From an uncultured archaeon (lineage in GTDB: Archaea > Asgardarchaeota > Thorarchaeia > Thorarchaeales > CAZPUN01): DNA of 32,000 bases. The notes under the pieces were generated by a model. The model made no database searches and was not told the DNA's origin. It saw only the letters and a program-made list of their open reading frames with translations. Of the stretch, positions 15,159 to 27,120 are shown one piece after another (positions within the stretch are counted from its first letter, which is position 1; the number at the start of each line of letters is the position of its first letter). The stretch spans positions 1-32,000 of the forward strand of contig CAZPUN010000021.1 of the NCBI GenBank assembly GCA_964589775.1, given 5' to 3'. A program made the translations under genes and the position numbers.

Positions 15159-15410
15159 ATTTGTTCACCAAATAGGTCCTCTTTGAATATTATTTAACCT
15201 AATGTTTATATAAAATATTGCATACTCTTTCTACACTTTAAAACATCTATATTAATTATTATATTTACGTAAGGCATATATTTTATATTAGTTAAAACAT
15301 TTAAATAAGTAAAAATCTATATGTGAATCATTGAAAATTAAGAATATCCACATAAAATAAAATGGGACTAAATCGTATGTACCCTTTATATGCACCTGAG
15401 GGGATTTAAT
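15159..15410. promoter_or_regulatory. AT-rich divergent promoter region
   Basis: Very AT-rich gap between divergent genes with TATA-like elements (e.g. TTTATATAAA at 15205-15214). Exact start sites are not assignable. Confidence 0.45.
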
Positions 15411-16262
15411 TTGATTAGAAATGTCTATATAATCAGTGATGAAGGAAGTATAATCTTCAGCAAAAACTATTCGGACAATAATAACAATACAGACTTGATT
15501 GAATTTCTAATTAGTCTTACCGAATTTGTGAATAATATGAATTTCCCGGAAAAAACTGAAACTATGGGTATGCATTCACTTCAGCTTTATTATTTACGCA
15601 AAGGTAATGTAATGTTTTATTTTGTTGCTGATAAGAGTGATGACCCCGAACAAGTAAAAGAAAAAATTGAGCAATTGTCCGATATATTTATGGAGAAATG
15701 GGGTAATATTGTAAAGAACTGGTCTGGAGATCCCAATGAGTTTGAGGGCATTGAAGAAGTTGTTGATAAAATTGCCGTAACTATGGTAAAGATTGCTCTA
15801 CTTGGATTTAGTTCAGTAGGAAAAACAACAACATTACGGTTATTACGCGGAGAGCCCGTTGCACTAACACACAAGGCAACAATCGGTGTAAATATCAAGT
15901 CTCTTTCCTCAGATATTGGAAATGCGAACTTGGTTATCTGGGACCTAGCTGGGCAGTCTAGGTTCTCAATTCTATGGAATAAGATGGTAAAGAATGCTCA
16001 AGTTGTTATTATAGTAACTGATAGTACGCTGGAAAATGTGTTGCGAAGTCGAAAGCTCGTGCAGATGGTTCAGAAAGAAGCTCCAACTGCGAAAATTATT
16101 GGAATTGCGAATAAGCAAGACTTACCTACTGCTCTAACTCCAGAGCGTGTAGGCCAAATTTTAGGTGTTCCAACCTACGAGCTAATTGCCATAGATCCAT
16201 CATATCGCGATAGGTTGCTTGCAATTCTTACCAAAGCAATTCTTGAAGTATCATCAACATAA
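15411..16262 (+). CDS. Longin-like domain + Ras-superfamily small GTPase (paralog of 9801-10997)
   Basis: G1 GFSSVGKT, G2 ATI, G3 WDLAGQ, G4 NKQD. N-terminal IRNVYIISDEGSIIFSKNY is longin-like. GAGGGG RBS suggests TTG 15411 (ORF track starts at 15390). Confidence 0.9.
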   Translation: MIRNVYIISDEGSIIFSKNYSDNNNNTDLIEFLISLTEFVNNMNFPEKTETMGMHSLQLYYLRKGNVMFYFVADKSDDPEQVKEKIEQLSDIFMEKWGNIVKNWSGDPNEFEGIEEVVDKIAVTMVKIALLGFSSVGKTTTLRLLRGEPVALTHKATIGVNIKSLSSDIGNANLVIWDLAGQSRFSILWNKMVKNAQVVIIVTDSTLENVLRSRKLVQMVQKEAPTAKIIGIANKQDLPTALTPERVGQILGVPTYELIAIDPSYRDRLLAILTKAILEVSST

Positions 16263-16341
16263 TGGTTCATTAGCAAAAATGTAAAAAGGTTTATTTATCT
16301 AATAAATGATAGTTAATAATAATGAGGGTCTGGTGATAAGT

Positions 16342-17106
16342 TTGAGCTTTGAACAACTAACCCAAGAAATCGCAATGATAAATGAAAAGTTAAAGAAAAT
16401 CGCTGGTTTTATGACCACTGTCTCAGAGACAAGAAGACTCATTGAAAACTTGCATGAGAATTTCAAAACAATGAAAAATCAAATCAATTCCACATTAGAG
16501 GAAATTGAGGATCAAATTGAAAAAATCAAGCAGAATATGGAAGAAATGCAGACGATCGCTCCTCAAACATCGTCATCTGCATCATCACAATCTGCTTCTG
16601 CACCTGTAAGTACTCCCACTCCTGCACCTGAGCCTGAACCAAAACCTCAGCCCGTAAAGGTTCCGGAACCAACACCTGAACCCGTACGTGCTCCAGAACC
16701 CGAACCCGTGGCGACTCCTGAACCCGTTAGTGTACCTGAGCCTGAGCCTATTGCAAGCCCATTTGGCGGTGCAGATATTGAGAGCGGTATGGGTGATGCT
16801 GAGGCATTATTAGAATCGGCACTTGCATCTGGCGAAAAAACTATGGATGCCTTATTTGGTGGTTCAAGTGCATCCGAATCTGCTGAGGCAAAGATTGAGA
16901 TTCCAACTACTTCTACTGAAAAAGAACCCGCTGAATTGCTTGAAGAGCTAAAACAAGAAAAAGAAAACATAAAGACTGCTCTTACAGATTTGCGATTTGA
17001 TTACATGCGTGGCTTAATTGATGAAGAAAATTACAAAGTTAAAGAATCAGAGCTCGAAGGAAAACTTGCATCAATTGAGAAACGCATACAAGAACTTACT
17101 GGATAA
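16342..17106 (+). CDS. Coiled-coil / Pro-Glu-rich linker / C-terminal helical-hairpin protein
   Basis: N-terminal heptads, PEPEP repeats, C-terminal LRFDYMRGLIDEENY hairpin. GGTGAT RBS suggests TTG 16342. Confidence 0.75.
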   Translation: MSFEQLTQEIAMINEKLKKIAGFMTTVSETRRLIENLHENFKTMKNQINSTLEEIEDQIEKIKQNMEEMQTIAPQTSSSASSQSASAPVSTPTPAPEPEPKPQPVKVPEPTPEPVRAPEPEPVATPEPVSVPEPEPIASPFGGADIESGMGDAEALLESALASGEKTMDALFGGSSASESAEAKIEIPTTSTEKEPAELLEELKQEKENIKTALTDLRFDYMRGLIDEENYKVKESELEGKLASIEKRIQELTG

Positions 17107-17119
17107 TTATAATTCAAAT

Positions 17120-17151
17120 ATGAAGCGAAAAGGCATAAGCCTCCGCTTCAT
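17120..17151. terminator. Stem-loop between convergent genes
   Basis: ATGAAGCG (17120-17127) pairs with CGCTTCAT (17144-17151), with an inner AGGC-ataa-GCCT stem; a T-rich run follows. Confidence 0.6.
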
Positions 17152-17171
17152 TATTTAATAATTTTTTATTT

Positions 17172-17711
17172 TTACTCGTTTTCTTCTGTTTTTTCAGTTT
17201 CTGATTTCTTGGACTTACGTGTTCTTTTCTTCTTTGTTTTTTCAGATTTTTCTGTGCTTTTTTCTTCTTTCTTTGTAGATTTCTTGGTGCTTTTCTTGGT
17301 ACTTTTGGTGCTTTTCTTAGTTTTCTTTTCTTCTTTCTTTGTAGATTTCTTGGTGCTTTTCTTGCTTTCCTTTGGTTTAATTCCTGTTGGTTTTATTGCC
17401 TCTTCTTCTTTTCTCAGAAGTTCAATTCTTTCTGAAGCATATTCTGGAGCCATATTTGGTTTTGTATATGCTTTGATCAGATTAGAAGAAACAATTGGAA
17501 CAAGTTTTCCTTCACGCTCTAATTGTCTGATTATTTCTTTTACGACACTTACTCTAACATTAAAGCGGGTCGCAATATCTGCTAGCGTGACTATTTTGGC
17601 CTTTTCTAAATATTTGTTAATTTCTTCTCTTGTTTCGGGCTCAACAATTGCGTCTCTAATTATTTTTTCGCGGGCTCTCTGTGTTGCGCCCCACTTCTTT
17701 TTGGCACCCAT
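17172..17711 (-). CDS. rps25e: Ribosomal protein eS25 (S25e) with long Lys/Ser/Thr-rich C-terminal extension
   Basis: KKKW...KIVT..IA.RF.VRVSV.K..IRQLE.EG.L..I....KAYT matches the eS25 winged-helix pattern. GGTGAT RBS precedes ATG 17711. Confidence 0.85.
   Translation of the reverse strand: MGAKKKWGATQRAREKIIRDAIVEPETREEINKYLEKAKIVTLADIATRFNVRVSVVKEIIRQLEREGKLVPIVSSNLIKAYTKPNMAPEYASERIELLRKEEEAIKPTGIKPKESKKSTKKSTKKEEKKTKKSTKSTKKSTKKSTKKEEKSTEKSEKTKKKRTRKSKKSETEKTEENE
17260..17364. repeat. 39-bp perfect direct repeat in the eS25 tail
   Basis: TTTTCTTCTTTCTTTGTAGATTTCTTGGTGCTTTTCTTG at 17260-17298 and 17326-17364. Confidence 0.85.
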
Positions 17712-17843
17712 TGTAATCACCTATTAAACAAGTCTAAACTTATGATTGTTCTTAAAAAACTTTCTGAGTAGTCAGATTTTTTGAGTACTCATAACAATCT
17801 TCAAATTTGATAGTGTATACATTAATAATAAGAGGGATAGTCC

Positions 17844-18548
17844 TTGATTATACGAAGTGATCCACCCGATATGAGTCTCTTAGTTGAGCGATTAATAAAA
17901 TATGCATATCCTGAATTGCGCACTCGAGATTTTATTATCTTATGGCGAAATATAAATGCAATTGCAGATATCACATGGGCGAAATGGGGTGGCGAAGTTC
18001 GAATAAGATTACATCCTATAGTGAAATCTTTTAACGACCCAATGTTAATTGGAACATTTGCACATGAACTAAGCCATGTAGCTCTAAAAGAAAATAACTC
18101 CGATGAATGGGAAACCGACTTTGATGTTGTAAAGCGTGGTCTAGGTCCATACCTTGCAATTGAGCGCGCATCTACTGGAATTTATTATGATCAACCTGCG
18201 CGTGGTAAATCTAAACCATATATGGGATTCTACACTATAATGGGATTACTGTCTGAAGATAGTAAGAAAAATACAGAACGCCTTGCAAAATTAATAAACC
18301 TTGATATTGCTCGTGAATTACCTCTCATTAGTACCAAGTCGATGCCAATGTCACACGATACTCTTTATCAAAAATTTGATAATGAATACGTTCTATCAAT
18401 AGATGGGGAAGAAATCTTACTTGATGCGGAGTATGATGAAAATAGCGACATAAATATTGAGATCCGTAATGGTGAGATTGTTGTATTCATTGATGGGAAG
18501 CCTGCAAAGATAAAGAAAATCAATCACTCTTCTTTGCAAAACATCTGA
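17844..18548 (+). CDS. Putative zincin-like metallopeptidase (HExxH)
   Basis: FAHELSHV followed by a candidate third ligand in EWETD; no signal peptide. The start could be ATG 17871. Confidence 0.65.
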   Translation: MIIRSDPPDMSLLVERLIKYAYPELRTRDFIILWRNINAIADITWAKWGGEVRIRLHPIVKSFNDPMLIGTFAHELSHVALKENNSDEWETDFDVVKRGLGPYLAIERASTGIYYDQPARGKSKPYMGFYTIMGLLSEDSKKNTERLAKLINLDIARELPLISTKSMPMSHDTLYQKFDNEYVLSIDGEEILLDAEYDENSDINIEIRNGEIVVFIDGKPAKIKKINHSSLQNI

Positions 18549-19290
18549 TAAATTTGTTAACGGATGCTTTGTATCCTTCATTAGAAATAGCTGAAATTTC
18601 AATATTTATTTTTGTACTAGTTTTTGTGTCTGGCAGCTTTAATGGAAAGACAAGTTCTTCAGTATCAAATGCCATAAGATCTAAGTTTCTTTCTATGAAC
18701 AGTAATATCTTATCAGATGAACTTCTCACTGTAAATTTAATTAAAACTGATAATGGATAACTCGAATAATTCATAATTTTTACAGGAATATTCAATAACG
18801 TCCCTGAATATGTAATTGAAGGTATATTCTCAATAAGTAATTTTAAGGGGCTCCTGGTTCTTTCAATTGATGTTTGAGCCATACTCAATAGTGATTTTGT
18901 TTCTTCTGCAATTTGGTTATCGCCATAAGATTCTGAGATAATACATGCATTTGAACAATATATTGAGCCATTATGTATAACCCAACAGGAGCTACATACA
19001 ATTTTACCACATATTTTACAACTTCCAATTAATTGTGGGGGCTCAAATTTTGTACTTGTGTATTTCTTGGCATGAGCTTTGCAGAATCCTCTACCGCAAA
19101 CTGAGCATTTTATCTCAGCAGGTGCTCCACAAATTTTGCAGACGTCTTGGGACTCTTTCTCGCCGGGTTCTGCGTGTTCTATCTTATAGTAGATTGAGTC
19201 TGGGCATTTTGGATTTATACAAGGTCCCACACCCTTATAGGCGCCACATGTCGGGCAAAACGGTTCAAGCATTTCTTTTCGTTTGGTCAT
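18520..19290 (-). CDS. Multi-zinc-finger (B-box/AN1-like) protein with C-terminal Ig-like domain
   Basis: CPTC..CINPKC; CKIC-x7-CSVC-x4-CKAH; CKIC..CSSC..YCSNAC; then a beta-rich segment 'SGTLLNIPVKIMN...'. Confidence 0.75.
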   Translation of the reverse strand: MTKRKEMLEPFCPTCGAYKGVGPCINPKCPDSIYYKIEHAEPGEKESQDVCKICGAPAEIKCSVCGRGFCKAHAKKYTSTKFEPPQLIGSCKICGKIVCSSCWVIHNGSIYCSNACIISESYGDNQIAEETKSLLSMAQTSIERTRSPLKLLIENIPSITYSGTLLNIPVKIMNYSSYPLSVLIKFTVRSSSDKILLFIERNLDLMAFDTEELVFPLKLPDTKTSTKINIEISAISNEGYKASVNKFIRCFAKKSD

Positions 19291-19460
19291 CCATCATCAT
19301 AATTATATATATATTCAAAAATATATAGTCCTTTTCAAAAGGGATTTTATTACCCTAGCTATACATTAAAATAGATTTAGAGCAATATAAGAATTATAAG
19401 TAATGTCTTCTATATAGATTATTGGGAGTATGTCATTAAAATTAAGAGAGGCCTAATAAA

Positions 19461-21878
19461 TTGTCCAAAGAGTTCCTTATTCCTCCAATCGCAACAGAAA
19501 AGGTTGCTATTTCGGGTTCTGAACCAATTGAACAATCTCTTCCAGATGATATCATAATCGCTGCTGCTTTATATGATGCATGGAATACGAAGGATGGAGA
19601 GCCCGTATTTTTAATTGAAGCTTTTTTGAAGATATTAGTTGCATCATCTCCTGAAGAAGAAAAAAGTATATTAATTGAAAATTTATCGTTGATCACGTCT
19701 CCAATATCCATTTATCAAATTGAGAATATAGAAAATATAATTGAAAAGATACGTGATGTTAAGAGAATTGAAGATTTGATGGAACTTATTAAAGATATTG
19801 AAAAACAACTGGGTAAGAATAAGAAGCAAAATATAACGATTCCCGGTTTACTTGCAGGGAAATTTTTGAAAGAGATCGGTCAATATATATCAATTTCTCG
19901 GCCTCAGAAACTTAAGGAATATTATACAGTTTTTCCAGACTTTGGTGGTATTAATGTTCATGAGACCGCACGACTTGTTCGTGAATCTTATGATAAATCT
20001 ATGAAGGCATTAAAAGCATATCGACTTGCATTAGAAGCTCTTGATATTAAACCAAAAGAATTGTTAGAACCTGAACGTAAGCGTATCAGTCGGGATATTG
20101 AGCGATTAAGAGTTCGTATTGAACAGTTACAAAAACGTATTAATGAACTGAATTACAATTTGAATAAAGGCTTAAAAATGCGAGAGGAAATGCTACGAGC
20201 ACGTCTGGAACAAAAGATAGAAGCGTTTGATTTTTCAAAATTAGAAATTAAACGAATGAAAATGGAACTTGAAGATGAAATTGAATCTCTGCGTAAAGAG
20301 TATGAAGATGAATTAGAAAAAAAGAATCGTGCAATAGCGAAGGACAAGGAACGATTAGAAAAACTCGAGAAAATACAAAAGGATTTGGATAAATTTTCAA
20401 AGAAAGAACTTGATAAAATCAAGAAAAAGATTGAAAATGTAATTTCTGAAATTTCACATTATATCGATAAACTCGAAGACGAAGTTATGGTAAATGCAGG
20501 TAGTCTCAGTAATGGTAAAGATACATATGTTTTAATACCATTTTTGATTTTTGGATTGCAGAAAGGCAGTAAGAAAAAAATAAAGTTGATTGGGCCATCG
20601 CAATTAGTAAAAGAGAAATCCAAGGATCATACGCTATTAGAACCGAGAAATGAATCTCTTCAACATTTACAAAATATGATTGAAGAGCGAATTGAGATTG
20701 ATACGTCATTACGAAGTTTTATCTATGATGAAGCTGATTTACGAAATGCATTTGCATTGGAAGAACCGCGTAAATTTATTTTGCGTGGTTTAATTAAACT
20801 TGTGTCTGATGGTTTTGTCAAACGTAATGACATCAAACGAATTGTTTCAAAAATTGAATCTTTCGAATTAATAGAAAGTCCAGAAATAATTGAAATAACT
20901 GATACAACGGACTTGGGTGAAGCGATCTCTCCTGAAGTTACAATTGAAGACGGCGGGAAAGGTTATGGCTCAGTACGAATTTTTGTTACAGATTCTGAGG
21001 GCAAGCGAATTCCTGAAGCCGTTTTAACATTAAATCGCAAAGAATATACTGCAGACAAGCGTGGTATAATCAACCTTTCATTAAAATCTGGTAAAAAGCG
21101 CGGTATTATTAAAGCTGAAGGATTTTACGATAAGAAAATTGTATTTCCTGTTAAAAATGATGCTTCAATATCTTTGCAAGTTAAACTTGATCCTATTCCT
21201 CCTGAAGAAATGTTGGCAAAACGAATCGATGAAATTACAAAGAAAGCTGAACGTACTGAAAAATTGTGGGAGAAATTACAGAAAGCCTTTGAAAAACATG
21301 GTGATGCAATTCTTCGTAATCCAAAATATCTCAGTGTTCTTGAAGAAATGCTTTCGGAAATGGGCATATCCCCAGAAGCATGGATTGCTGAAGCGAGTAA
21401 AACTCCAGACATGGTCTCGCGTTTATTCAAGAAAGGTCCATATTATGAAGGTCTTAGACGCGATATAATTTCTCTAATTGACACGTCCAAAGAATCCGGT
21501 GGAATTCTTGCATTATCTGAAGTCATTATGATATTGTCTAAAAAAGGTTGGAAAATATCTCCCGATGAAATTATAAAAACTATTGAAGATCTATCTAAGC
21601 AAGGATTAATTGGAGGAATTTCTGTACTGGATAATGGAATTAAAGTTGTACATTTCGTTCCCGTAGAAATGACGAAAGATCCACAGACAGTCATGTCTGT
21701 TGCTGCTAAACATAAAGGTAAAATTACACTTGAAACAGTAATTCTAGAACTTGGTTGGACTGAAGAGCGCGCAGAACGTGCATTGGAAAGCCTAGTTAAT
21801 GCCGGTATTGCAAAGGTTCAGAAAACCTATTCTCGAAGTTATATTTATTGGTTCCCAAGCTTAATGGAGAAGAAATAA
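19461..21878 (+). CDS. Large coiled-coil + beta-sandwich + ESCRT-II Vps22/SNF8 (EAP30)-like fusion protein
   Basis: The C-terminal ~220 aa (KHGDAILRNPKY...EMGISP...YYEGL...GGILALSE...ISPDEIIKTI...VPVEMTKD...LGWTEERAERALESLVNAG...YWFPSL) align motif by motif with eukaryotic SNF8/Vps22 as recalled. Confidence 0.88.
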   Translation: MSKEFLIPPIATEKVAISGSEPIEQSLPDDIIIAAALYDAWNTKDGEPVFLIEAFLKILVASSPEEEKSILIENLSLITSPISIYQIENIENIIEKIRDVKRIEDLMELIKDIEKQLGKNKKQNITIPGLLAGKFLKEIGQYISISRPQKLKEYYTVFPDFGGINVHETARLVRESYDKSMKALKAYRLALEALDIKPKELLEPERKRISRDIERLRVRIEQLQKRINELNYNLNKGLKMREEMLRARLEQKIEAFDFSKLEIKRMKMELEDEIESLRKEYEDELEKKNRAIAKDKERLEKLEKIQKDLDKFSKKELDKIKKKIENVISEISHYIDKLEDEVMVNAGSLSNGKDTYVLIPFLIFGLQKGSKKKIKLIGPSQLVKEKSKDHTLLEPRNESLQHLQNMIEERIEIDTSLRSFIYDEADLRNAFALEEPRKFILRGLIKLVSDGFVKRNDIKRIVSKIESFELIESPEIIEITDTTDLGEAISPEVTIEDGGKGYGSVRIFVTDSEGKRIPEAVLTLNRKEYTADKRGIINLSLKSGKKRGIIKAEGFYDKKIVFPVKNDASISLQVKLDPIPPEEMLAKRIDEITKKAERTEKLWEKLQKAFEKHGDAILRNPKYLSVLEEMLSEMGISPEAWIAEASKTPDMVSRLFKKGPYYEGLRRDIISLIDTSKESGGILALSEVIMILSKKGWKISPDEIIKTIEDLSKQGLIGGISVLDNGIKVVHFVPVEMTKDPQTVMSVAAKHKGKITLETVILELGWTEERAERALESLVNAGIAKVQKTYSRSYIYWFPSLMEKK

Positions 21879-21880
21879 AA

Positions 21881-22555
21881 ATGTCTTCAATTGCAAAAAA
21901 GTTCGGAAAATTAGAAAAGCAACTTCAAAAATTAAACATTACATTAGATCGCCTGATTGAGGATGTAAAACAAGTACAGGAAGCAAGTTCGAAAATTGAT
22001 TATGCAACATCACTTAATTATTTGAAAAACCTTGGTGAAGTATTACTAACGGGTACATCGCCATTCTATATTATCATCCAGCAGTTTTCAACTAAAGAAT
22101 ATAAGAATGTTGTGAAAGTTTTCACCGATAGCGACATATTTAATGTGATTGCAATCAACAATCCTTCTGAAGACTATATCTCAAATCATAATATACTAAG
22201 TGTCATAATTGCCGATTCACAAAAATTCGGAGAATCTATAATTCCGACCATAATTAATTTGCGTTTTTCAGCATTTCCTTCCTTCTATGATGATACAACT
22301 GTATTCATAGGAAACCGATATCTTCATGATACAAAAGGAGTATTAGAAAAATTATTCACAAAATTAGAAAATAAAGGATTTACCGTCTTGTATGATGAAA
22401 AGGATTTTGGCGGCGGTCCTTTTGTTTATCAAGCGATCAACCAATTCGGTCCGGTTCCACGAGTTTCGATATTTGAAATAACGGTGTCTGAAAAATTAAT
22501 AAACATGGTTGATAAGCTTGAATCTATCTATAAGGTGTTTGTTACTGTAATGTAA
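21881..22555 (+). CDS. Coiled-coil + alpha/beta domain resembling a degenerate N-formylglutamate amidohydrolase fold
   Basis: ATG 2 bp after the upstream stop; VFIGNRY...LENKGFTV...FGGG...IFEITVSEKL pattern. The CDS is secure; the product is tentative. Confidence 0.55.
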   Translation: MSSIAKKFGKLEKQLQKLNITLDRLIEDVKQVQEASSKIDYATSLNYLKNLGEVLLTGTSPFYIIIQQFSTKEYKNVVKVFTDSDIFNVIAINNPSEDYISNHNILSVIIADSQKFGESIIPTIINLRFSAFPSFYDDTTVFIGNRYLHDTKGVLEKLFTKLENKGFTVLYDEKDFGGGPFVYQAINQFGPVPRVSIFEITVSEKLINMVDKLESIYKVFVTVM

Positions 22556-22569
22556 AGGGTGTATGCTAA

Positions 22570-25500
22570 TTGAAATTGACTCGCCTTCCATATACTCATG
22601 GTATTGAAGTAGAGCTTCAAGTGCTTAATGATGATGGAACCTGGATTAGTGGCGAGGCTATAGTGGATATTTTTAATGATATAATTACCCGCGCGAAAGA
22701 AATAATTGAAGAATCCGCAGCTAAATCTGAAGTTTCCGTTATACATGAACGTTTTTTGGGATTGAAAATTGTTGAGAAAGACCCTAAAAAAGGTACAAAA
22801 ATTGTTGTCAAATATAAGTTGAAAGATGGTCGTGTAAAAGAATTTGATATAATGTCCCGTGACCCCCATATTGCTACAGTAACATATATCTTAGAAGTGG
22901 TTACACCTCCGTGTGACTATCTGGAAGAACTTGCATGGTGGATTCACATTCTAGTTTCCTCGGCTGAAAAATCGCTTCCCGCAGAAAAAGGAGTTATTCT
23001 AGTCTCAACGGGTTTGAATCCTACAGTGGATTATTTTAAAGGATTATCATTTGGTGAGCATCACCATATTTTAGGCCCAGAAGTGCCAAGCGAGGAAAAA
23101 TTAGCTGTGTATAATTTACTTCGTAATTTCATACCCCATATTATTGCGCTAACGGTAAACTCCCCTATTGTGAACGGAAAACCAACTGATGAAATACGTG
23201 AGTTACCTGATGGTAGAATAAGAGCTCCCCGTTGTATTCGCAGTATTCGACTCCAAATGAATTGTGCTCAGCTCGGTCCATGTTCTGATCGCGAATACAT
23301 TCCATACATGATTAGAGCATCTCCTGATGAGTTTGCTCTTAATGTCAACAGAGACCCACCGCGTATGGTTGATATGTATCCATTTACGGATTATGGAACC
23401 ATAGAACTAAGATGTGTTGACACTCAGCTTAGTATTCCCCGGAGAATTGGAATAGCTGCTATAATCCAAGCAATAGCATTAAAAGCGTCTAAATTATATA
23501 AGGCAGGACGACAAATTCCAGATGTGGGTAAAAAGTCAATCGTTCAAAATCGTGAGCGTGCAGTTTCAGCTGGATTGTGGGGACGATTCGAAAAACCTGA
23601 AGGTTTAGAAAAAATTGATCCTGAATTTGCAGCGTACTATTCATACAAGATCGGTCCCGATGGTCGTCCTGATATTTCAAAAGTAAATCGATATCTTTCT
23701 GATGCTGTAGAAGGTCTAATTGCGTATATTAAGGAAGAATTAGATGAACTCGAATTAATTGATAATGAATTTATGCAACCTTTATTTGTATCTATATTTG
23801 GTAGCTCTACAATTGAGCCTCGTACTACCACAGCGGATTATCAACTTATTGAATATTATTCCACCGGAAATAATGTATCTGCATTATTAAGAAAGCTTGT
23901 GAATATAACCGAAGATTGCTCTACTAATTGGTTATATGATCCCTTATCTGGAACACCAGATTTACCCGGATGGCTCAAATGGTGGACCGAAATTAATGTG
24001 GATATAAAACTTCTTTCGCCCACAGTATTTAGTGGGAATGATGTTAATTTTGTTGTTGAAATAAAAAATGGGAGTACCATAACATTACCAAATGTTGTTA
24101 TATCAATCTCCGTATTAAATGGTGAAAAAGAACAGGTATTTGCCGATACAATTCCGATTGGAAATATACATGCTGGTGATGTTATTCCCGTAGAGCGAGT
24201 TTTTAGCACACTTGATGGTTCTTCGTCATACGTAATACTTGCTGTTGCAAAAATTGGTACTAGGGAAATAAAGTTTCAGAAGTCGTTAAACACATATCGT
24301 GTCAAATCTACTATTAATGTGTTGGTTGACCATATTATTCCTCAATCCAAGACGTCCATTCCTTTCAAAGCTAGCATCTGGACAAATTATCCTGAAGACC
24401 AAGAAATTTCAGCCGAAGTATTATGTGTAAGTTCCAATGGGGAAGTTCTTGCAAAAGGCCAGTACAATTTTATACTTCCTAAAGAAGAAAAGAAGGTATT
24501 CAATCAAGAAAACTTTGAAAATATTATTATATCTCCAGAAGATGCAATTGGTCTTAAAAGATGCCATTTGGAACTGATTGTGAAAAATAAGTCTGGGCAT
24601 GTTTTGACAAAATCAATATCTAATAAATTCTATATTAGTTTTAGAGGCCCACAATTTGAAGTATCCTATGATATGCCTTCAACTATTAGTAATCCCGACA
24701 TTGAAAAAGTATCTGTTTCCCTAAGAATTAATTCATCAAGCATGATTAATCCTCATGATGTTGAAGCTTCCGTATTTTATTCTGTTGGACACTCATCAAA
24801 AATTCTAATTGGTAATTACAAGATCTTTGAAATTCCTGAATCTATTTCTGTTGAAATTCCAATACCTAAATATGAGGATAATTTCGAAATTTATTTTCAT
24901 ACAACTATTAAGTATAAAGGACATAAAATTACAACTATAAAAAGCCCGCCTCTATTAATTTCGAAATCGCAAGCAGTTCAAATTGAAAATATATTTGCCC
25001 CTGAAACCGTTTTTAAAAATTCGAAATTTAATGTGGGTGTAAAATTAAGATTTCCTTCAGACAAAACCGAAACTGTCAATTTAATCCTTGGTATTAGAAC
25101 TCCTACCGGTGCTGATGTGGTTCTCTCACAAAATAAGATCGCAAATAGTGGGGAAATTTACGTACCATTAGGACCATTCACTCCCTGGGGCATATTATCT
25201 GATTATGATTATTTCATGCTTTATGTGGCATTAGAGCAAAAGAATAAAATAATTGATATCAAGCAAAAGAAGGTTGAAATCACACATCTTAAAGAAATGA
25301 ATATTGATGTTGTATTTGGGAAAGTTGAAACAAATGTAACTGTTGGCTCAGATTTATCATGCTTGATTTTATTGAAAAACACAACGGACCAAGTATCCAA
25401 TCTGGTAGTTCATTATAAGATCTACGAACTATCTGGAAAACAGATTAATAGTGATTCTCATAAAATCGTTCTTGAAGAATATGGTGAAAAATATCTTCCA

Positions 25501-25989
25501 CTAAATATACCCATCCCTGTTTTTATCAAGCCGGGTAAATACAATCTAAATATTTATGTTGAAACTGAAGGCGCAATCATTAGTTCCTATATGACTTCAT
25601 TTAATGTTCTTGATATGACTGGCGAAGCTGTAACCATAAAGTTTAGATTCGAAAGTCTTAGAGGTGAGCCATATTCTTCACTTCTTCCGTCAGGAAAATT
25701 GATACATATTTTTGTTGATGTCCTATCGCAAATATCGCTAAAAGGTCGTATTTCTTTAGACCTTCTTCTTAGATCTGGTCGTACAATAGTCGATACCCTT
25801 AGCATTGAACTAAAACCTATGAATGCAGGGGATCAAATAACTATTGGACCCTTAGATTGGACCGTGCCATATACGGAAGATACCACTACATATATGTTTG
25901 AACCCGTCTTGAGAGTAAATAATAATAGACTTTCGCCCCAACTCATAAATATTGAGAATAACCAAATTAGAGTATTTAGTGCAATATAA
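22570..25989 (+). CDS. GCS2/YbdK-family carboxylate-amine ligase fused to tandem Ig-like domains
   Basis: GIEVELQ, LEVVTPPC, STGLNP, FGEHHHI, IIALTVNSP, RSIR, YGTIELRCVDTQ in the first ~470 aa; the remaining ~670 aa are beta-rich CARDB/Ig-like repeats. Confidence 0.88.
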   Translation: MKLTRLPYTHGIEVELQVLNDDGTWISGEAIVDIFNDIITRAKEIIEESAAKSEVSVIHERFLGLKIVEKDPKKGTKIVVKYKLKDGRVKEFDIMSRDPHIATVTYILEVVTPPCDYLEELAWWIHILVSSAEKSLPAEKGVILVSTGLNPTVDYFKGLSFGEHHHILGPEVPSEEKLAVYNLLRNFIPHIIALTVNSPIVNGKPTDEIRELPDGRIRAPRCIRSIRLQMNCAQLGPCSDREYIPYMIRASPDEFALNVNRDPPRMVDMYPFTDYGTIELRCVDTQLSIPRRIGIAAIIQAIALKASKLYKAGRQIPDVGKKSIVQNRERAVSAGLWGRFEKPEGLEKIDPEFAAYYSYKIGPDGRPDISKVNRYLSDAVEGLIAYIKEELDELELIDNEFMQPLFVSIFGSSTIEPRTTTADYQLIEYYSTGNNVSALLRKLVNITEDCSTNWLYDPLSGTPDLPGWLKWWTEINVDIKLLSPTVFSGNDVNFVVEIKNGSTITLPNVVISISVLNGEKEQVFADTIPIGNIHAGDVIPVERVFSTLDGSSSYVILAVAKIGTREIKFQKSLNTYRVKSTINVLVDHIIPQSKTSIPFKASIWTNYPEDQEISAEVLCVSSNGEVLAKGQYNFILPKEEKKVFNQENFENIIISPEDAIGLKRCHLELIVKNKSGHVLTKSISNKFYISFRGPQFEVSYDMPSTISNPDIEKVSVSLRINSSSMINPHDVEASVFYSVGHSSKILIGNYKIFEIPESISVEIPIPKYEDNFEIYFHTTIKYKGHKITTIKSPPLLISKSQAVQIENIFAPETVFKNSKFNVGVKLRFPSDKTETVNLILGIRTPTGADVVLSQNKIANSGEIYVPLGPFTPWGILSDYDYFMLYVALEQKNKIIDIKQKKVEITHLKEMNIDVVFGKVETNVTVGSDLSCLILLKNTTDQVSNLVVHYKIYELSGKQINSDSHKIVLEEYGEKYLPLNIPIPVFIKPGKYNLNIYVETEGAIISSYMTSFNVLDMTGEAVTIKFRFESLRGEPYSSLLPSGKLIHIFVDVLSQISLKGRISLDLLLRSGRTIVDTLSIELKPMNAGDQITIGPLDWTVPYTEDTTTYMFEPVLRVNNNRLSPQLINIENNQIRVFSAI

Positions 25990-26226
25990 TTGTAAAATTT
26001 GGTATTTTTTGGGGTGGTCTTTTGTATTATATTTTTATCAAACAACAATTAACGAATTTAGTATGTATTTTTCGACAATTATCGATTATTTTTTCATTCA
26101 TGTAGTAACCCTTAAATGTAATTACTTTGAAACTAGCTATTGTTAAGTGTCAGTCAGTAGTCGCAGTTATAATGATAGTTGTACAGAATCATGACACTTG
26201 CCAAATAATATGGAGATGTGAATGAT

Positions 26227-27120
26227 ATGTTTGAACTGTTGAATCATACATTAACTATAGGCATCATCGTAGTCAGCTTCCTTGCGGTAGTGTCATATAA
26301 GCTTCGGTTCGTTGACTTCTCAGGACTTGTCTCAGCTTACATAATCGGCATAATCGTATGGTATACTGGTGGTCCTGGTGCATTTGCATTACTGTTATTC
26401 TTCTTAGTGAGTGCCAGTATTGCTACAAAATACAAGTACAAAGCAAAAGAGGCTGCGGGCGTTGCTCAGGAAGGCAAAGGCATGCGAAATTGGAAAAACG
26501 TGATCTATAGTGGTCTTATTCCGACTTTATTCTCCATAGGTGGATACCTAGCACCCAATTTTGGACTTGACTCACTTATATTCACATATGGCTTTATAGG
26601 CGCCGTTGCAACTACGACTGCAGACACTTTAGCAAGTGAAATTGGTGTATTTAGTCAATCAAAACCAAGATTGATTACAAATCTACGCCGTAAAGTTCCA
26701 CGAGGAACTATTGGTGCAGTATCTTCATTAGGTGAATATGTTGCATTATTCAGCAGTCTTGCTGTTGGCATTTTAGCCTATATTTTTGCTATTCTTGGAA
26801 TTATACCTGTAAATAATTCAATAGTTGTAATCATTATAGCTACCGTGGCTGGTTTTATTGGTTGTAATACTGATAGTCTCATAGGGGCTGTCTTTCAAGC
26901 AAAATACCAATGCACAGTCTGTGGTAAAATAACCGATAAAACTCTTCATTGTGGAAAGCCAACCGTGTATCGTCGTGGATTTAAACGTGTAGATAATACT
27001 GTTGTAAACTTTACATCATCTACTCTCGGCGCAACAATTGCAATTATTCTTGTAACTGGTCTGTTGATCTATCTCTTAAGTGCTTTATTCCTATGGCTCG
27101 TTGCTACATCTGGAGATTAA
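26227..27120 (+). CDS. DUF92/TMEM19-family membrane protein
   Basis: ATKYK...K, RNWKNV, ADTLASEIG, PRLIT..R.VP.GT.GAVS..G, DSLIGAVFQ, Zn-ribbon insert CTVCG...HCG, DN..VNF. Confidence 0.92.
   Translation: MFELLNHTLTIGIIVVSFLAVVSYKLRFVDFSGLVSAYIIGIIVWYTGGPGAFALLLFFLVSASIATKYKYKAKEAAGVAQEGKGMRNWKNVIYSGLIPTLFSIGGYLAPNFGLDSLIFTYGFIGAVATTTADTLASEIGVFSQSKPRLITNLRRKVPRGTIGAVSSLGEYVALFSSLAVGILAYIFAILGIIPVNNSIVVIIIATVAGFIGCNTDSLIGAVFQAKYQCTVCGKITDKTLHCGKPTVYRRGFKRVDNTVVNFTSSTLGATIAIILVTGLLIYLLSALFLWLVATSGD

Follow-up and report, generated by a model that had tools for sequence, protein, structure and literature searches.

A Vps22-like fusion gene clustered and co-lost with a GCS2-type ligase system in Asgard archaea

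Why should a gene resembling an ESCRT-II subunit be followed, within a few nucleotides, by genes for a hydrolase-like protein and an amide-forming ligase? The locus that raises this question lies in a 32,000-nucleotide stretch of DNA (the window) from an uncultured Thorarchaeales archaeon. A preliminary description of this DNA proposed that the locus encodes a ubiquitin-independent ligation system coupled to an ESCRT-II-like scaffold. The three co-oriented genes on which that proposal was built are present as described, with open reading frames on the plus strand at 19461-21878, 21881-22555 and 22570-25989 and gaps of 2 and 14 bp. The features of the locus are as follows.

18520..19290, minus strand: zinc-finger protein gene, divergent from the cluster (weak B-box match)
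19291..19460, no strand: AT-rich intergenic region of 170 bp, probable promoter region of the three-gene cluster (TATA-like runs)
19461..21878, plus strand: gene 1, Vps22/EAP30-like fusion of 805 aa (Pfam EAP30, SNF8 profile match, orthologue alignment)
21228..21875, plus strand: EAP30/Vps22-like helices and double winged-helix module of gene 1, aa 590-805 (Pfam, profile, identity)
21881..22555, plus strand: gene 2 (P2), 224 aa (AF2 model, VIA/Foldseek, column conservation)
22570..23979, plus strand: catalytic domain of gene 3, aa 1-470, YbdK/GCS2-type ATP-dependent carboxylate-amine ligase (Pfam, profile, model)
23977..25989, plus strand: C-terminal array of gene 3, aa 470-1139, about six tandem repeats of ~110 aa (self-hhalign)
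25990..26217, no strand: T-rich intergenic region of 228 bp, probable end of the transcription unit, as suggested by oligo-T runs directly after the ligase stop

The 170-bp region is common to the cluster and the divergent zinc-finger gene and is the sole sizeable gap upstream of the cluster. Gene 2 starts with ATG, with an in-frame TTG upstream at 21848, and a GGTG-type ribosome-binding site precedes gene 3. Judging from the sequence, the three genes are likely co-transcribed. None of the three proteins has a hydrophobic N-terminus or a TM-like segment, in agreement with the earlier remark that signal peptides are not obvious. That description also reported no ESCRT-I, ESCRT-III, Vps4 or ubiquitin genes in the operon; these families are likewise missing from the ten open reading frames flanking the cluster.

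Gene 1 is a member of the Vps22 family by its C-terminus. Residues 603-784 match Pfam EAP30 (E 3e-19; 70 bits versus a cut-off of 26.8) over model positions 36-215 of 219, and the family profile matches human SNF8/Vps22 (3cuq_A, E 1.4e-17) and yeast Vps22 (E 7.6e-9). Domain borders set from the alignment delimit a conserved N-terminal domain (aa 1-170), a coiled coil (about 175-345), a conserved region surrounding an invariant P360-F361 (about 350-470), a putative PEGA/CarboxypepD_reg-like beta-sandwich hinted at by the orthologue from Ca. Asgardarchaeum (about 500-585) and, at residues 590-805, helices followed by a double winged helix. Full-length orthologues of the fusion, 780-800 aa long, align end to end. 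The likeness to ESCRT-II Vps22/SNF8/EAP30 (PF04157; 3cuq, 1u5t) resides in the C-terminal 215 aa, comprising the helices and both winged helices, whereas the 590 residues that precede them (an uncharacterized domain, the coiled coil and the beta-sandwich) are additional to Vps22.

The same genome carries a canonical Vps22-like/Vps25/Vps4 cluster on contig C64, and its Vps22-like protein is 36% identical to the C-terminus of gene 1 (E 1e-24). Unlike Asgard Vps22 loci, gene 1 is not encoded with Vps25, Vps4 or ESCRT-III, and no Vps25, Vps4, ESCRT-III or ESCRT-I gene was found within the window. Gene 1 is thus a paralogue restricted to Thor/Asgardarchaeia and not the ESCRT-II of this genome; the earlier assignment to the Vps22/EAP30 family stands on the Pfam and SNF8 matches, but identity with ESCRT-II does not. 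The Asgard Vps22 family corresponds to cog.002769 (Makarova et al. 2024, PMC10936438), and the parts consulted of that 2024 survey of Asgard ESCRT proteins make no mention of the fusion architecture or of a ligase link.

Gene 3 encodes 1139 aa, and the earlier call of a GCS2-type ligase is upheld by Pfam, profile and model alike. Pfam GCS2 scores 23.6 bits (cut-off 21), the ligase profile matches E. coli YbdK (E 4e-14), and the AF2 model (pLDDT 91.6) has YbdK as its best match (1r8g; Foldseek E 2.3e-14, TM 0.76 normalized by YbdK length), with plant GCL also matching (2gwc; Foldseek E 1.6e-8). The fold and three motif blocks are held in common with YbdK/GCS2 ligases (PF04107; 1r8g, 1tt4): an N-terminal PFT-GIE-E-Q strand, G-H-H / PH-IALS-SP, and GT-E-R-D. 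Across 15 sequences from 8 Asgard families, residues E13, E15, E109, H164, H166, R185, H190, R224, R227, E279, R281 and D284 are invariant, and E13, E15, E109, H164, H166, E279 and R281 fall in blocks aligned to YbdK. These last seven probably belong to the metal-ATP site and correspond to the residues that bind Mg in E. coli GshA.

Compared with YbdK, gene 3 is only about 17% identical, has roughly 100 extra residues in its catalytic domain and bears a 670-aa C-terminal array of six repeats. Its scores against the NCBIfam YbdK and GshA equivalog models lie far below every cut-off (for example, 52 versus 176 bits), and it is therefore a member of the superfamily rather than an equivalog. The array, previously read as Ig domains, does consist of about six tandem repeats, which self-hhalign aligns at offsets near 105, 222, 330 and 440 (E 1.7e-13 to 1e-4), but the Ig fold stays putative; hints to Transglut_C, CARDB-like and beta-arrestin (E 0.05) domains are weak, and the repeats are probably beta-sandwich domains.

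One possibility raised by this fold is pupylation-like tagging, in which the ligase would be an analogue of PafA that attaches a small protein tag. PafA and Dop are indeed among the fold matches of the ligase, showing a shared superfamily, but TM-scores to them are 0.34-0.45 by either length, compared with the 0.76 by target length for YbdK, and a profile search of solved structures matches YbdK and not PafA or Dop. By both Foldseek and profile, the ligase is nearer to YbdK and the gamma-Glu-Cys ligases than to PafA. Moreover, the neighborhoods examined hold no conserved small gene that resembles a tag, and the only small conserved neighbor in Thorarchaeaceae-type (Thor-type) genomes, p145, remains after the system is lost. 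The modeled structure and the lack of a profile match thus argue against a PafA/Dop-type enzyme, the likeness being at the superfamily level only, and we regard a tag of this kind as very improbable.

The product of gene 2, P2, gave no significant match in a Pfam search. Its AF2 model (pLDDT 94) shows an alpha/beta domain preceded by an N-terminal helix of 50 residues, and the best structural matches are to N-formylglutamate amidohydrolase (2q7s, VIA Z 12.6, 167 aligned residues, rmsd 3.2; 2odf, Z 12.5, Foldseek E 2e-5), followed by the poly-gamma-glutamate hydrolase PghP (VIA Z 10.7); 152-167 residues are aligned in the top matches. The label "amidohydrolase-like" in the preliminary description is therefore apt for the fold but not backed by Pfam. 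We place P2 at the fold level rather than in a family because Z falls gradually to other peptidase- and phosphorylase-fold proteins. A faint FGase sequence match (E 0.015) was obtained for one of 40 P2 family members, and the P2 of the window gives none.

Unlike N-formylglutamate amidohydrolase and PghP (PF05013; 2q7s, 2odf, 3a9l), P2 has the added N-terminal helix and lacks the metal-binding His: in the 40 sequences aligned, His reaches 40% in no column, and neither His nor Cys is conserved. The residues that are conserved are D94 (N in the protein of the window), E97, R128, R146, Y147, D172, GGG177-179, Y183, E199, T201 and S203. An acidic D-x-x-E pair (94, 97), present in about two thirds of the members and N-x-x-E in the protein of the window, may occupy the position of HxxE in the fold relatives. 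Given the lack of metal-binding histidines, the model makes a substrate-binding or regulatory subunit more likely than a standard hydrolase. The P2 family amounts to only 49 clusters among 1.84 billion proteins, and in the family of the window, the sister species, Thor-type genomes, Jordarchaeales and family f19, the gene immediately upstream of the ligase is a recognizable homologue. P2 may accordingly be named as a candidate dedicated small partner of the ligase, its predicted fold being shared with enzymes known to cleave N-acyl- or gamma-glutamyl amides.

The ligase itself has a far wider range than the fusion. Its family is found across Asgard archaea, with 34-53% identity among eight families and one joint tree, and the proteins that accompany it most widely are a metal hydrolase of the Amidohydro_2 type and a Cdc48N-vWA protein (hereafter hydrolase and vWA). 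Both are encoded beside the ligase or not far from it in the genomes of Asgardarchaeum, Jordarchaeales and the Thor type; next to the ligase of Loki-type and f27 genomes, the hydrolase was the only one of the two observed. The hydrolase is orthologous among Loki-type, Jordarchaeales and window genomes. In contrast to this arrangement, the ligase of the window is flanked by P2 and the fusion, and the hydrolase and vWA genes are unlinked to it, on contig C36 alongside HEAT and Rce1-like genes. P2 and the ligase occur without the Vps22-like fusion in Jordarchaeales and family f19, where the position upstream of the pair is taken by coiled-coil proteins for which homology to gene 1 was not detectable; in Lokiarchaeia the ligase occurs by itself, again without the fusion. 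Among 301 Asgard genomes, the full-length fusion was found in only three families. The six ligase repeat domains are carried in the Thor-related clade.

Is the fusion then more than a chance neighbor of P2 and the ligase? The gene order is the same in a sister species, where P2 identity has dropped to 59%. In Ca. Asgardarchaeum, which belongs to the class Asgardarchaeia, an orthologue of the fusion (794 aa) is followed by a gene for 214 aa and a ligase of 1144 aa, with gaps of 21 and 13 bp; the middle gene could not be shown to be homologous to P2 (hhalign E 0.057). Conservation of gene order does not extend to the Thor-type genomes, the best-sampled family, in which the fusion and ligase loci are about 60 kb apart and hence do not form one operon, an outcome that the preliminary description had listed as speaking against its proposal. 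The ligase tree, (Asgardarchaeum,(window, Thor-type)), has supports of 81/92 and 93/94; together with the shared order in Asgardarchaeum, it indicates that adjacency is probably ancestral and was broken in the Thor-type lineage.

The Thor-type genomes also include several from which these genes have been lost. In four of them (G005, 98% complete; G016; G027; G037), the fusion has been cleanly excised between YdjM-like and ZnF/p377, and P2 with the ligase between p145 and DUF92; the two excised loci are 54-72 kb apart, and their flanking genes are retained. The hydrolase and vWA are absent from these four genomes and from G098, in which a search found neither ligase nor fusion, and are present in control genomes. 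In another genome, G055 (97% complete), the fusion, P2, hydrolase and vWA are lost and the ligase is a 708-aa remnant, 31% identical; four congeners have the hydrolase and vWA. At least three losses must have been independent, since the scars left by the deletions are not alike and the genes persist in congeners of G005 and G055. In three lineages, then, the fusion, P2, hydrolase and vWA went together, with the ligase lost in two and truncated in the third.

Across 77 Thor-type genomes, ligase and fusion are both present in 63 and both missing from 7, with the ligase alone in 3 and the fusion alone in 4. Most discordant cases are assembly gaps, as flanking markers are missing too, and Fisher values for the co-occurrence overstate the case because related genomes are not independent samples. 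One genome, G063 (91% complete), retains an intact, divergent 876-aa fusion, and the ligase, hydrolase and vWA were not found in it. That the Vps22-like protein and the ligase are functionally linked, as first proposed, is thus favored by gene order in a second class and by three joint losses, but G063 and the split Thor-type loci count against it.

The same observations bear on whether the juxtaposition is accidental, such that the fusion belongs to an upstream trafficking-type module and an unrelated P2-ligase pair landed alongside it in two lineages. An upstream block (longin-Arf GTPase, coiled-coil, winged-helix and zinc-finger genes) is kept beside the fusion in the window and in Thor-type genomes, and the distance between the Thor-type loci, the fusion of G063 and the classes that run the ligase system without a fusion all suit this explanation. 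However, the block stays in place in genomes that deleted the fusion, which is therefore not tied to it; the joint loss of fusion, P2, hydrolase and vWA from separate loci happened independently in three lineages; and the adjacency recurs in a different class. We consider an accident unlikely. Because the Vps22-like gene is deleted as well from related genomes in which the ligase system has been lost, the fusion and the ligase system probably work together in an unstudied pathway.

What such a pathway acts on is less readily deduced. The ligase might serve small-molecule metabolism, making gamma-glutamylcysteine or another gamma-glutamyl or N-acyl amino compound that the hydrolases recycle, with the extra domains used for assembly or regulation and no tagging involved. 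Consistent with this, the closest solved relatives of the ligase, YbdK and the gamma-Glu-Cys ligases, make small molecules, the enzymes that P2 matches best in fold have N-formylglutamate, pyroglutamyl and poly-gamma-glutamate substrates, and sources annotate the ligase family as glutamate-cysteine ligase. Yet the NCBIfam scores fall well short of the curated YbdK and GshA cut-offs, 670 aa of repeats are attached to the ligase, P2 is without the metal ligands of its fold relatives, and the co-inherited vWA, Cdc48N and Vps22-like proteins have no role in metabolite synthesis. A purely metabolic function therefore seems somewhat unlikely to us. With partners rich in Ig-like repeats, vWA, Cdc48N, coiled-coil and winged-helix domains, a macromolecular substrate, protein or peptide, would fit better than a metabolite.

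We favor, with a probability of about 0.62, the view that the cluster encodes three parts of one uncharacterized Asgard system. The ligase would be the amide-bond-forming enzyme of an Asgard module that includes the hydrolase and vWA and, by analogy with its fold family, would use ATP to activate a carboxylate, in the form of an acyl-phosphate, before joining it to an amine. YbdK has none of the partners P2, Amidohydro_2, Cdc48N-vWA and Vps22-like fusion. The fusion, which in contrast to Vps22 is gained and lost with the amide-ligase system and confined to three families, could be a clade-specific accessory: an adaptor placing the ligase or its product, or else its target. Its deletion upon loss of the system suggests that it depends on the system, and the presence of the system without it in other classes suggests that the reverse is not so.

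Contact of the system with Vps25 or ESCRT-III is conceivable, and we can only speculate that glutamylation or isopeptide tagging precedes a hand-over to ESCRT. In one decidedly doubtful scheme, the ligase writes a non-ubiquitin mark (gamma-glutamyl-type, or another isopeptide or amide), the Amidohydro_2 protein erases it, Cdc48N-vWA and the fusion read or present it, and the winged helices of the fusion pass marked cargo or the enzyme complex to Vps25/ESCRT-III. If true, this would constitute an archaeal route from modification to ESCRT sorting, parallel to ubiquitin-ESCRT. Iyer, Abhiman, Burroughs and Aravind are said to have predicted in 2009 (reportedly in Mol Biosyst 5:1636) that amidoligase-peptidase neighborhoods modify peptides or proteins. 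Such neighborhoods and PafA/Dop pupylation resemble the Asgard system in pairing a GS/GCL-fold ligase with hydrolase-fold partners in a writer-and-eraser logic; the Asgard system differs in having no evident tag protein, in its eukaryote-like scaffolds (Vps22-like, Cdc48N-vWA) and in being confined to Asgard archaea. Our literature search found no paper on this ligase family or on a fusion-ligase link, and it is the link of the ligase system to a Vps22-like fusion that is new.

The divergent zinc-finger gene may have a share in the system as well. Its orthologue adjoins the fusion in Thor-type genomes, making it a conserved neighbor of gene 1; the gene is absent in G016, G027 and G037 and retained in G005 and G055. 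The zinc-finger protein is thus possibly associated with the system.

Three genes on the forward strand form a compact cluster in the window:

19461-21878, + strand: gene 1, ORF of 805 amino acids (aa), a fusion protein with a Vps22/EAP30-like module
21881-22555, + strand: gene 2, ORF of 224 aa counted from its ATG, the small partner protein P2
22570-25989, + strand: gene 3, ORF of 1139 aa, a YbdK/GCS2-type ligase with repeats

The gaps measure 2 bp (genes 1 and 2) and 14 bp (genes 2 and 3), a GGTG-type ribosome-binding site lies ahead of gene 3, and the cluster is bounded by an AT-rich spacer of 170 bp before gene 1 and a T-rich spacer of 228 bp after gene 3. Sequence inspection found no hydrophobic N-terminus or transmembrane-like segment in any of the three products, and the arrangement given in the preliminary description, three closely spaced co-oriented genes with no obvious signal peptide, stands. 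The genome (2.16 Mb, 64 contigs, 96.8% complete) shares an order with Thorarchaeota-labelled genomes and belongs to a separate family; the sampled genomes include just one species of this family and one of the class Asgardarchaeia.

The reading that our data support best makes the fusion a clade-specific accessory of a ligase system composed of the ligase, an Amidohydro_2 metal hydrolase and a Cdc48N-vWA protein, since the fusion is lost when the system goes and other classes have the system but no fusion. The predicted structure of ligase residues 1-470 (pLDDT 91.6) has E. coli YbdK as its top structural match, followed by plant and bacterial gamma-Glu-Cys ligases, and the sequence profile matches YbdK (E 4e-14) via three motif blocks. 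Residues E13, E15, E109, H164, H166, R185, H190, R224, R227, E279, R281 and D284 are invariant across 15 sequences from eight families; the score lies far under every curated YbdK/GshA equivalog threshold. From sequence and model, the protein looks like an active ATP-dependent carboxylate-amine ligase that, judging from its fold, would activate a carboxylate as an acyl-phosphate and then form an amide. The analogy to pupylation drawn earlier does not hold, as PafA and Dop match the model at superfamily level only. The abundance of interaction domains, our sole basis on this point, suggests a protein or peptide substrate; that the ligase instead produces a metabolite and serves small-molecule metabolism seems rather unlikely to us.

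Ligase residues 470-1139 comprise approximately six tandem repeats of ~110 aa each. Searched against solved structures, a profile of this array (window 23977-25989) gave a weak beta-arrestin C-domain match at ligase residues ~700-800 (E 0.05). Arrestin-like domains are trafficking adaptors, but the match is too weak for interpretation. Of 301 Asgard genomes, 173 encode the catalytic domain, in proteins of ~1140 aa in the Thor-related clade, ~1180-1400 aa (two copies) in Jordarchaeales and family f19, and, in Lokiarchaeia, ~565 aa including a polybasic head. Literature searches found no publication linking Asgard archaea or Thorarchaeota to this ligase family.

A Pfam search of gene 2 returned no significant match, and a word-based search recovered only a near relative. 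The wider P2 family emerged when 1.84 billion proteins were searched exhaustively with a profile, which yielded just 49 clusters, most of ~210-260 aa and others shorter pieces. In the predicted model (pLDDT 94), a helix of 50 residues leads into an alpha/beta domain that matches N-formylglutamate amidohydrolases best, at Z 12.6 and 12.5; pyroglutamyl peptidase I (Z 11.8) and poly-gamma-glutamate hydrolases (Z 10.7 and 10.2) also align, and one of 40 family members shows a faint FGase sequence match. Conserved positions in the family alignment include D/N94, E97, R128, R146-Y147, D172, GGG177-179, Y183, E199, T201 and S203, with no conserved His or Cys. The earlier label "amidohydrolase-like" is therefore apt for the fold, but the canonical zinc site is missing, and gene 2 is predicted to encode a degenerate amidohydrolase-fold partner. 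A recognisable P2 homologue directly precedes the ligase in the window's family and its sister species, in most Thorarchaeaceae-type (hereafter Thor-type) genomes (31% identity, E 1e-17), in Jordarchaeales and in f19.

The C-terminal 215 residues of gene 1 match Pfam EAP30 (E 3e-19), and its family profile matches human SNF8/Vps22 (E 1.4e-17) and yeast Vps22 (7.6e-9). This region is 36% identical to the short Vps22-like protein of the same genome. Because the canonical Vps22-like gene adjoins Vps25 and Vps4 on another contig, C64, gene 1 is an extra paralogue and not the genome's ESCRT-II. The ESCRT-II connection proposed in the preliminary description thus survives as a Vps22/EAP30 module but not as the canonical component. 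Preceding the module are ~590 residues containing, in order, a conserved N-terminal domain, a long coiled coil, a conserved region at an invariant P-F, and a PEGA/CarboxypepD_reg-like beta-sandwich. Among 301 sampled Asgard genomes, full-length orthologues (780-800 aa, 21-30% identity) occur in three families only, namely the window's, the Thor-type (67 of 77 genomes) and that of Ca. Asgardarchaeum; elsewhere, just the ~250-aa canonical form was found. Protein atlas look-ups returned a single related cluster, from Thorarchaeota (137 members, score 0.86), and none beyond it. The fusion architecture is absent from the accessible portion of a 2024 survey of Asgard ESCRT proteins (PMC10936438).

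The canonical ESCRT cluster on C64 (locus L011:7409-12283) encodes Vps25, Vps4 and a Vps22-like protein of 265 aa whose N-terminus is VPS28/steadiness-box-like. Ahead of it lie two unannotated genes (453 and 239 aa), and ESCRT-III may be among them. Hand-over from the ligase system to Vps25 or ESCRT-III is speculation on our part.

Gene order provides one line of evidence on whether the fusion and ligase are linked. In Ca. Asgardarchaeum, of a different class, the fusion is followed by a 214-aa gene and then by the ligase, as in the window, at spacings of 21 and 13 bp. Profile comparison detected no significant homology between this middle gene and the P2 family, and its high score in the exhaustive search is circular, the gene itself having been included in the query. 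Thor-type genomes count against a link: their ligase neighbourhood reads Opp-ABC, p145, P2, ligase, DUF92, with the fusion ~60 kb away on the same contig (at least nine genomes), preceded by the genes that also precede it in the window (a longin-Arf GTPase, a coiled-coil protein, an S25-like winged helix, p234 and a divergent zinc finger). Conservation of the order is thus partial, recurring in a second class but not in the Thor-type loci. The ligase tree places Asgardarchaeum, on a long branch, outside a group of the window and Thor-type sequences (supports 81/92 and 93/94). On the simplest history, fusion and ligase were ancestrally adjacent and became separated in Thor-type genomes; the window has the neighbour sets of both fusion and ligase, as expected of the ancestral layout.

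The block preceding the fusion (window 15390-19290) encodes the longin-Arf-type GTPase, the coiled-coil protein, which has a weak CdvA-like hairpin match (E 6e-5), the S25-like protein, which has a weak EAP30 match, a 234-aa unknown and a B-box-like zinc finger (ZnF). It adjoins the fusion in Thor-type genomes too and, minus the zinc finger, remains in every examined fusion-deleted genome.

A second line of evidence is joint loss. Across 77 Thor-type genomes, fusion and ligase are both present in 63 and both absent from seven, with three carrying the ligase only and four the fusion only. The Fisher p-values (1.4e-5 and 2.4e-4) are only indicative, as related genomes are not independent samples; the argument depends on three independent, clean, multi-locus deletions. 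We examined both loci directly in G005 (98% complete), G016, G027 and G037, and all flanking genes are present. The fusion is excised between YdjM-like and ZnF/p377, and P2 and the ligase between p145 and DUF92, at sites 54-72 kb apart. The hydrolase and vWA genes are also missing from these four genomes and from G098, whose losses derive from search alone, and are present in ligase-bearing controls. ZnF is kept in G005 and lost in the other three, and congeners of G005 have all the genes, indicating that the G005 loss is separate. In a third event, G055 (97% complete) lost the fusion, P2, hydrolase and vWA. Its four congeners have hydrolase and vWA, and G075, the sole near-complete one, has intact ligase and fusion genes too. 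G055 retains a truncated, fast-diverged ligase of 708 aa (31% identity; L039:7014-9140), possibly a leftover, possibly an enzyme put to a new use.

Assembly gaps account for most of the discordant cases, as the markers on either side are absent as well; this applies to apparent absences in G173, G260, G263, G287, G212, G281 and G206. The one real exception is G063, in which an 876-aa fusion (L037:7365-9995) is intact but strongly diverged and the ligase, hydrolase and vWA were not detected.

Work on Asgard archaea addresses how eukaryotic membrane trafficking arose, and to our knowledge the only genes connected with their ESCRT-II proteins until now were those of ubiquitin and ESCRT-I/III. A gene order seen in two classes, together with joint losses that recurred, now connects a Vps22 paralogue with an ATP-dependent amide ligase, its hydrolase-like partner, a metal hydrolase and a Cdc48N-vWA protein. 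Should the ligase act on proteins, the closest archaeal relatives of eukaryotes would have a second "mark and sort" logic, one independent of ubiquitin; even with a small-molecule product, the finding provides a first functional context for a widespread, unstudied Asgard enzyme family. The five or six proteins form a defined set that can be expressed and tested together.

The ~500-aa Amidohydro_2 hydrolase and the Cdc48N-vWA protein recur near the ligase in several Asgard groups, and both the orthology of the hydrolase and the repeated proximity were confirmed. Both genes adjoin the ligase in Asgardarchaeum and Jordarchaeales and lie within 8 kb of it in Thor-type genomes; the hydrolase is directly beside it in Loki-type and family f27 genomes. 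The Cdc48N-vWA protein (L009:13078-14388 and orthologues) is unusually conserved: Thor-type genera share 75-81% identity in it. The ligase domains, compared between Thor-type genomes and the window, are just ~50% identical. In classes without the fusion, other large non-enzymatic proteins fill the position upstream of the ligase (or P2), which looks like a variable "adaptor slot". Three such genes have no enzyme-family match:

L015:9024-10181: Jordarchaeales ligase locus, upstream gene of 385 aa
L017:9820-11097: f19 ligase locus, upstream gene of 425 aa
L019:4496-6358: Loki-type ligase locus, upstream gene of 620 aa

No homology to gene 1 was detected for the 385-aa and 425-aa proteins, which precede P2. 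Thor-type p145, also upstream of P2, was rejected as a component, being unrelated to gene 1 and remaining after system loss. The DUF92 membrane protein that follows the ligase in the window (26218-27120) and Thor-type genomes is likewise kept after deletion and is probably unrelated. In the window's genome, the hydrolase and vWA genes are found apart from the ligase on contig C36 with HEAT and Rce1-like genes, in a HEAT, Cdc48N-vWA, Amidohydro_2, 871-aa gene block (L028:2482-12107). The 871-aa protein contains a faint Amidohydro_2-like stretch and is weakly similar (E 1e-4) to the divergently transcribed 840-aa neighbour of the fusion in Ca. Asgardarchaeum.
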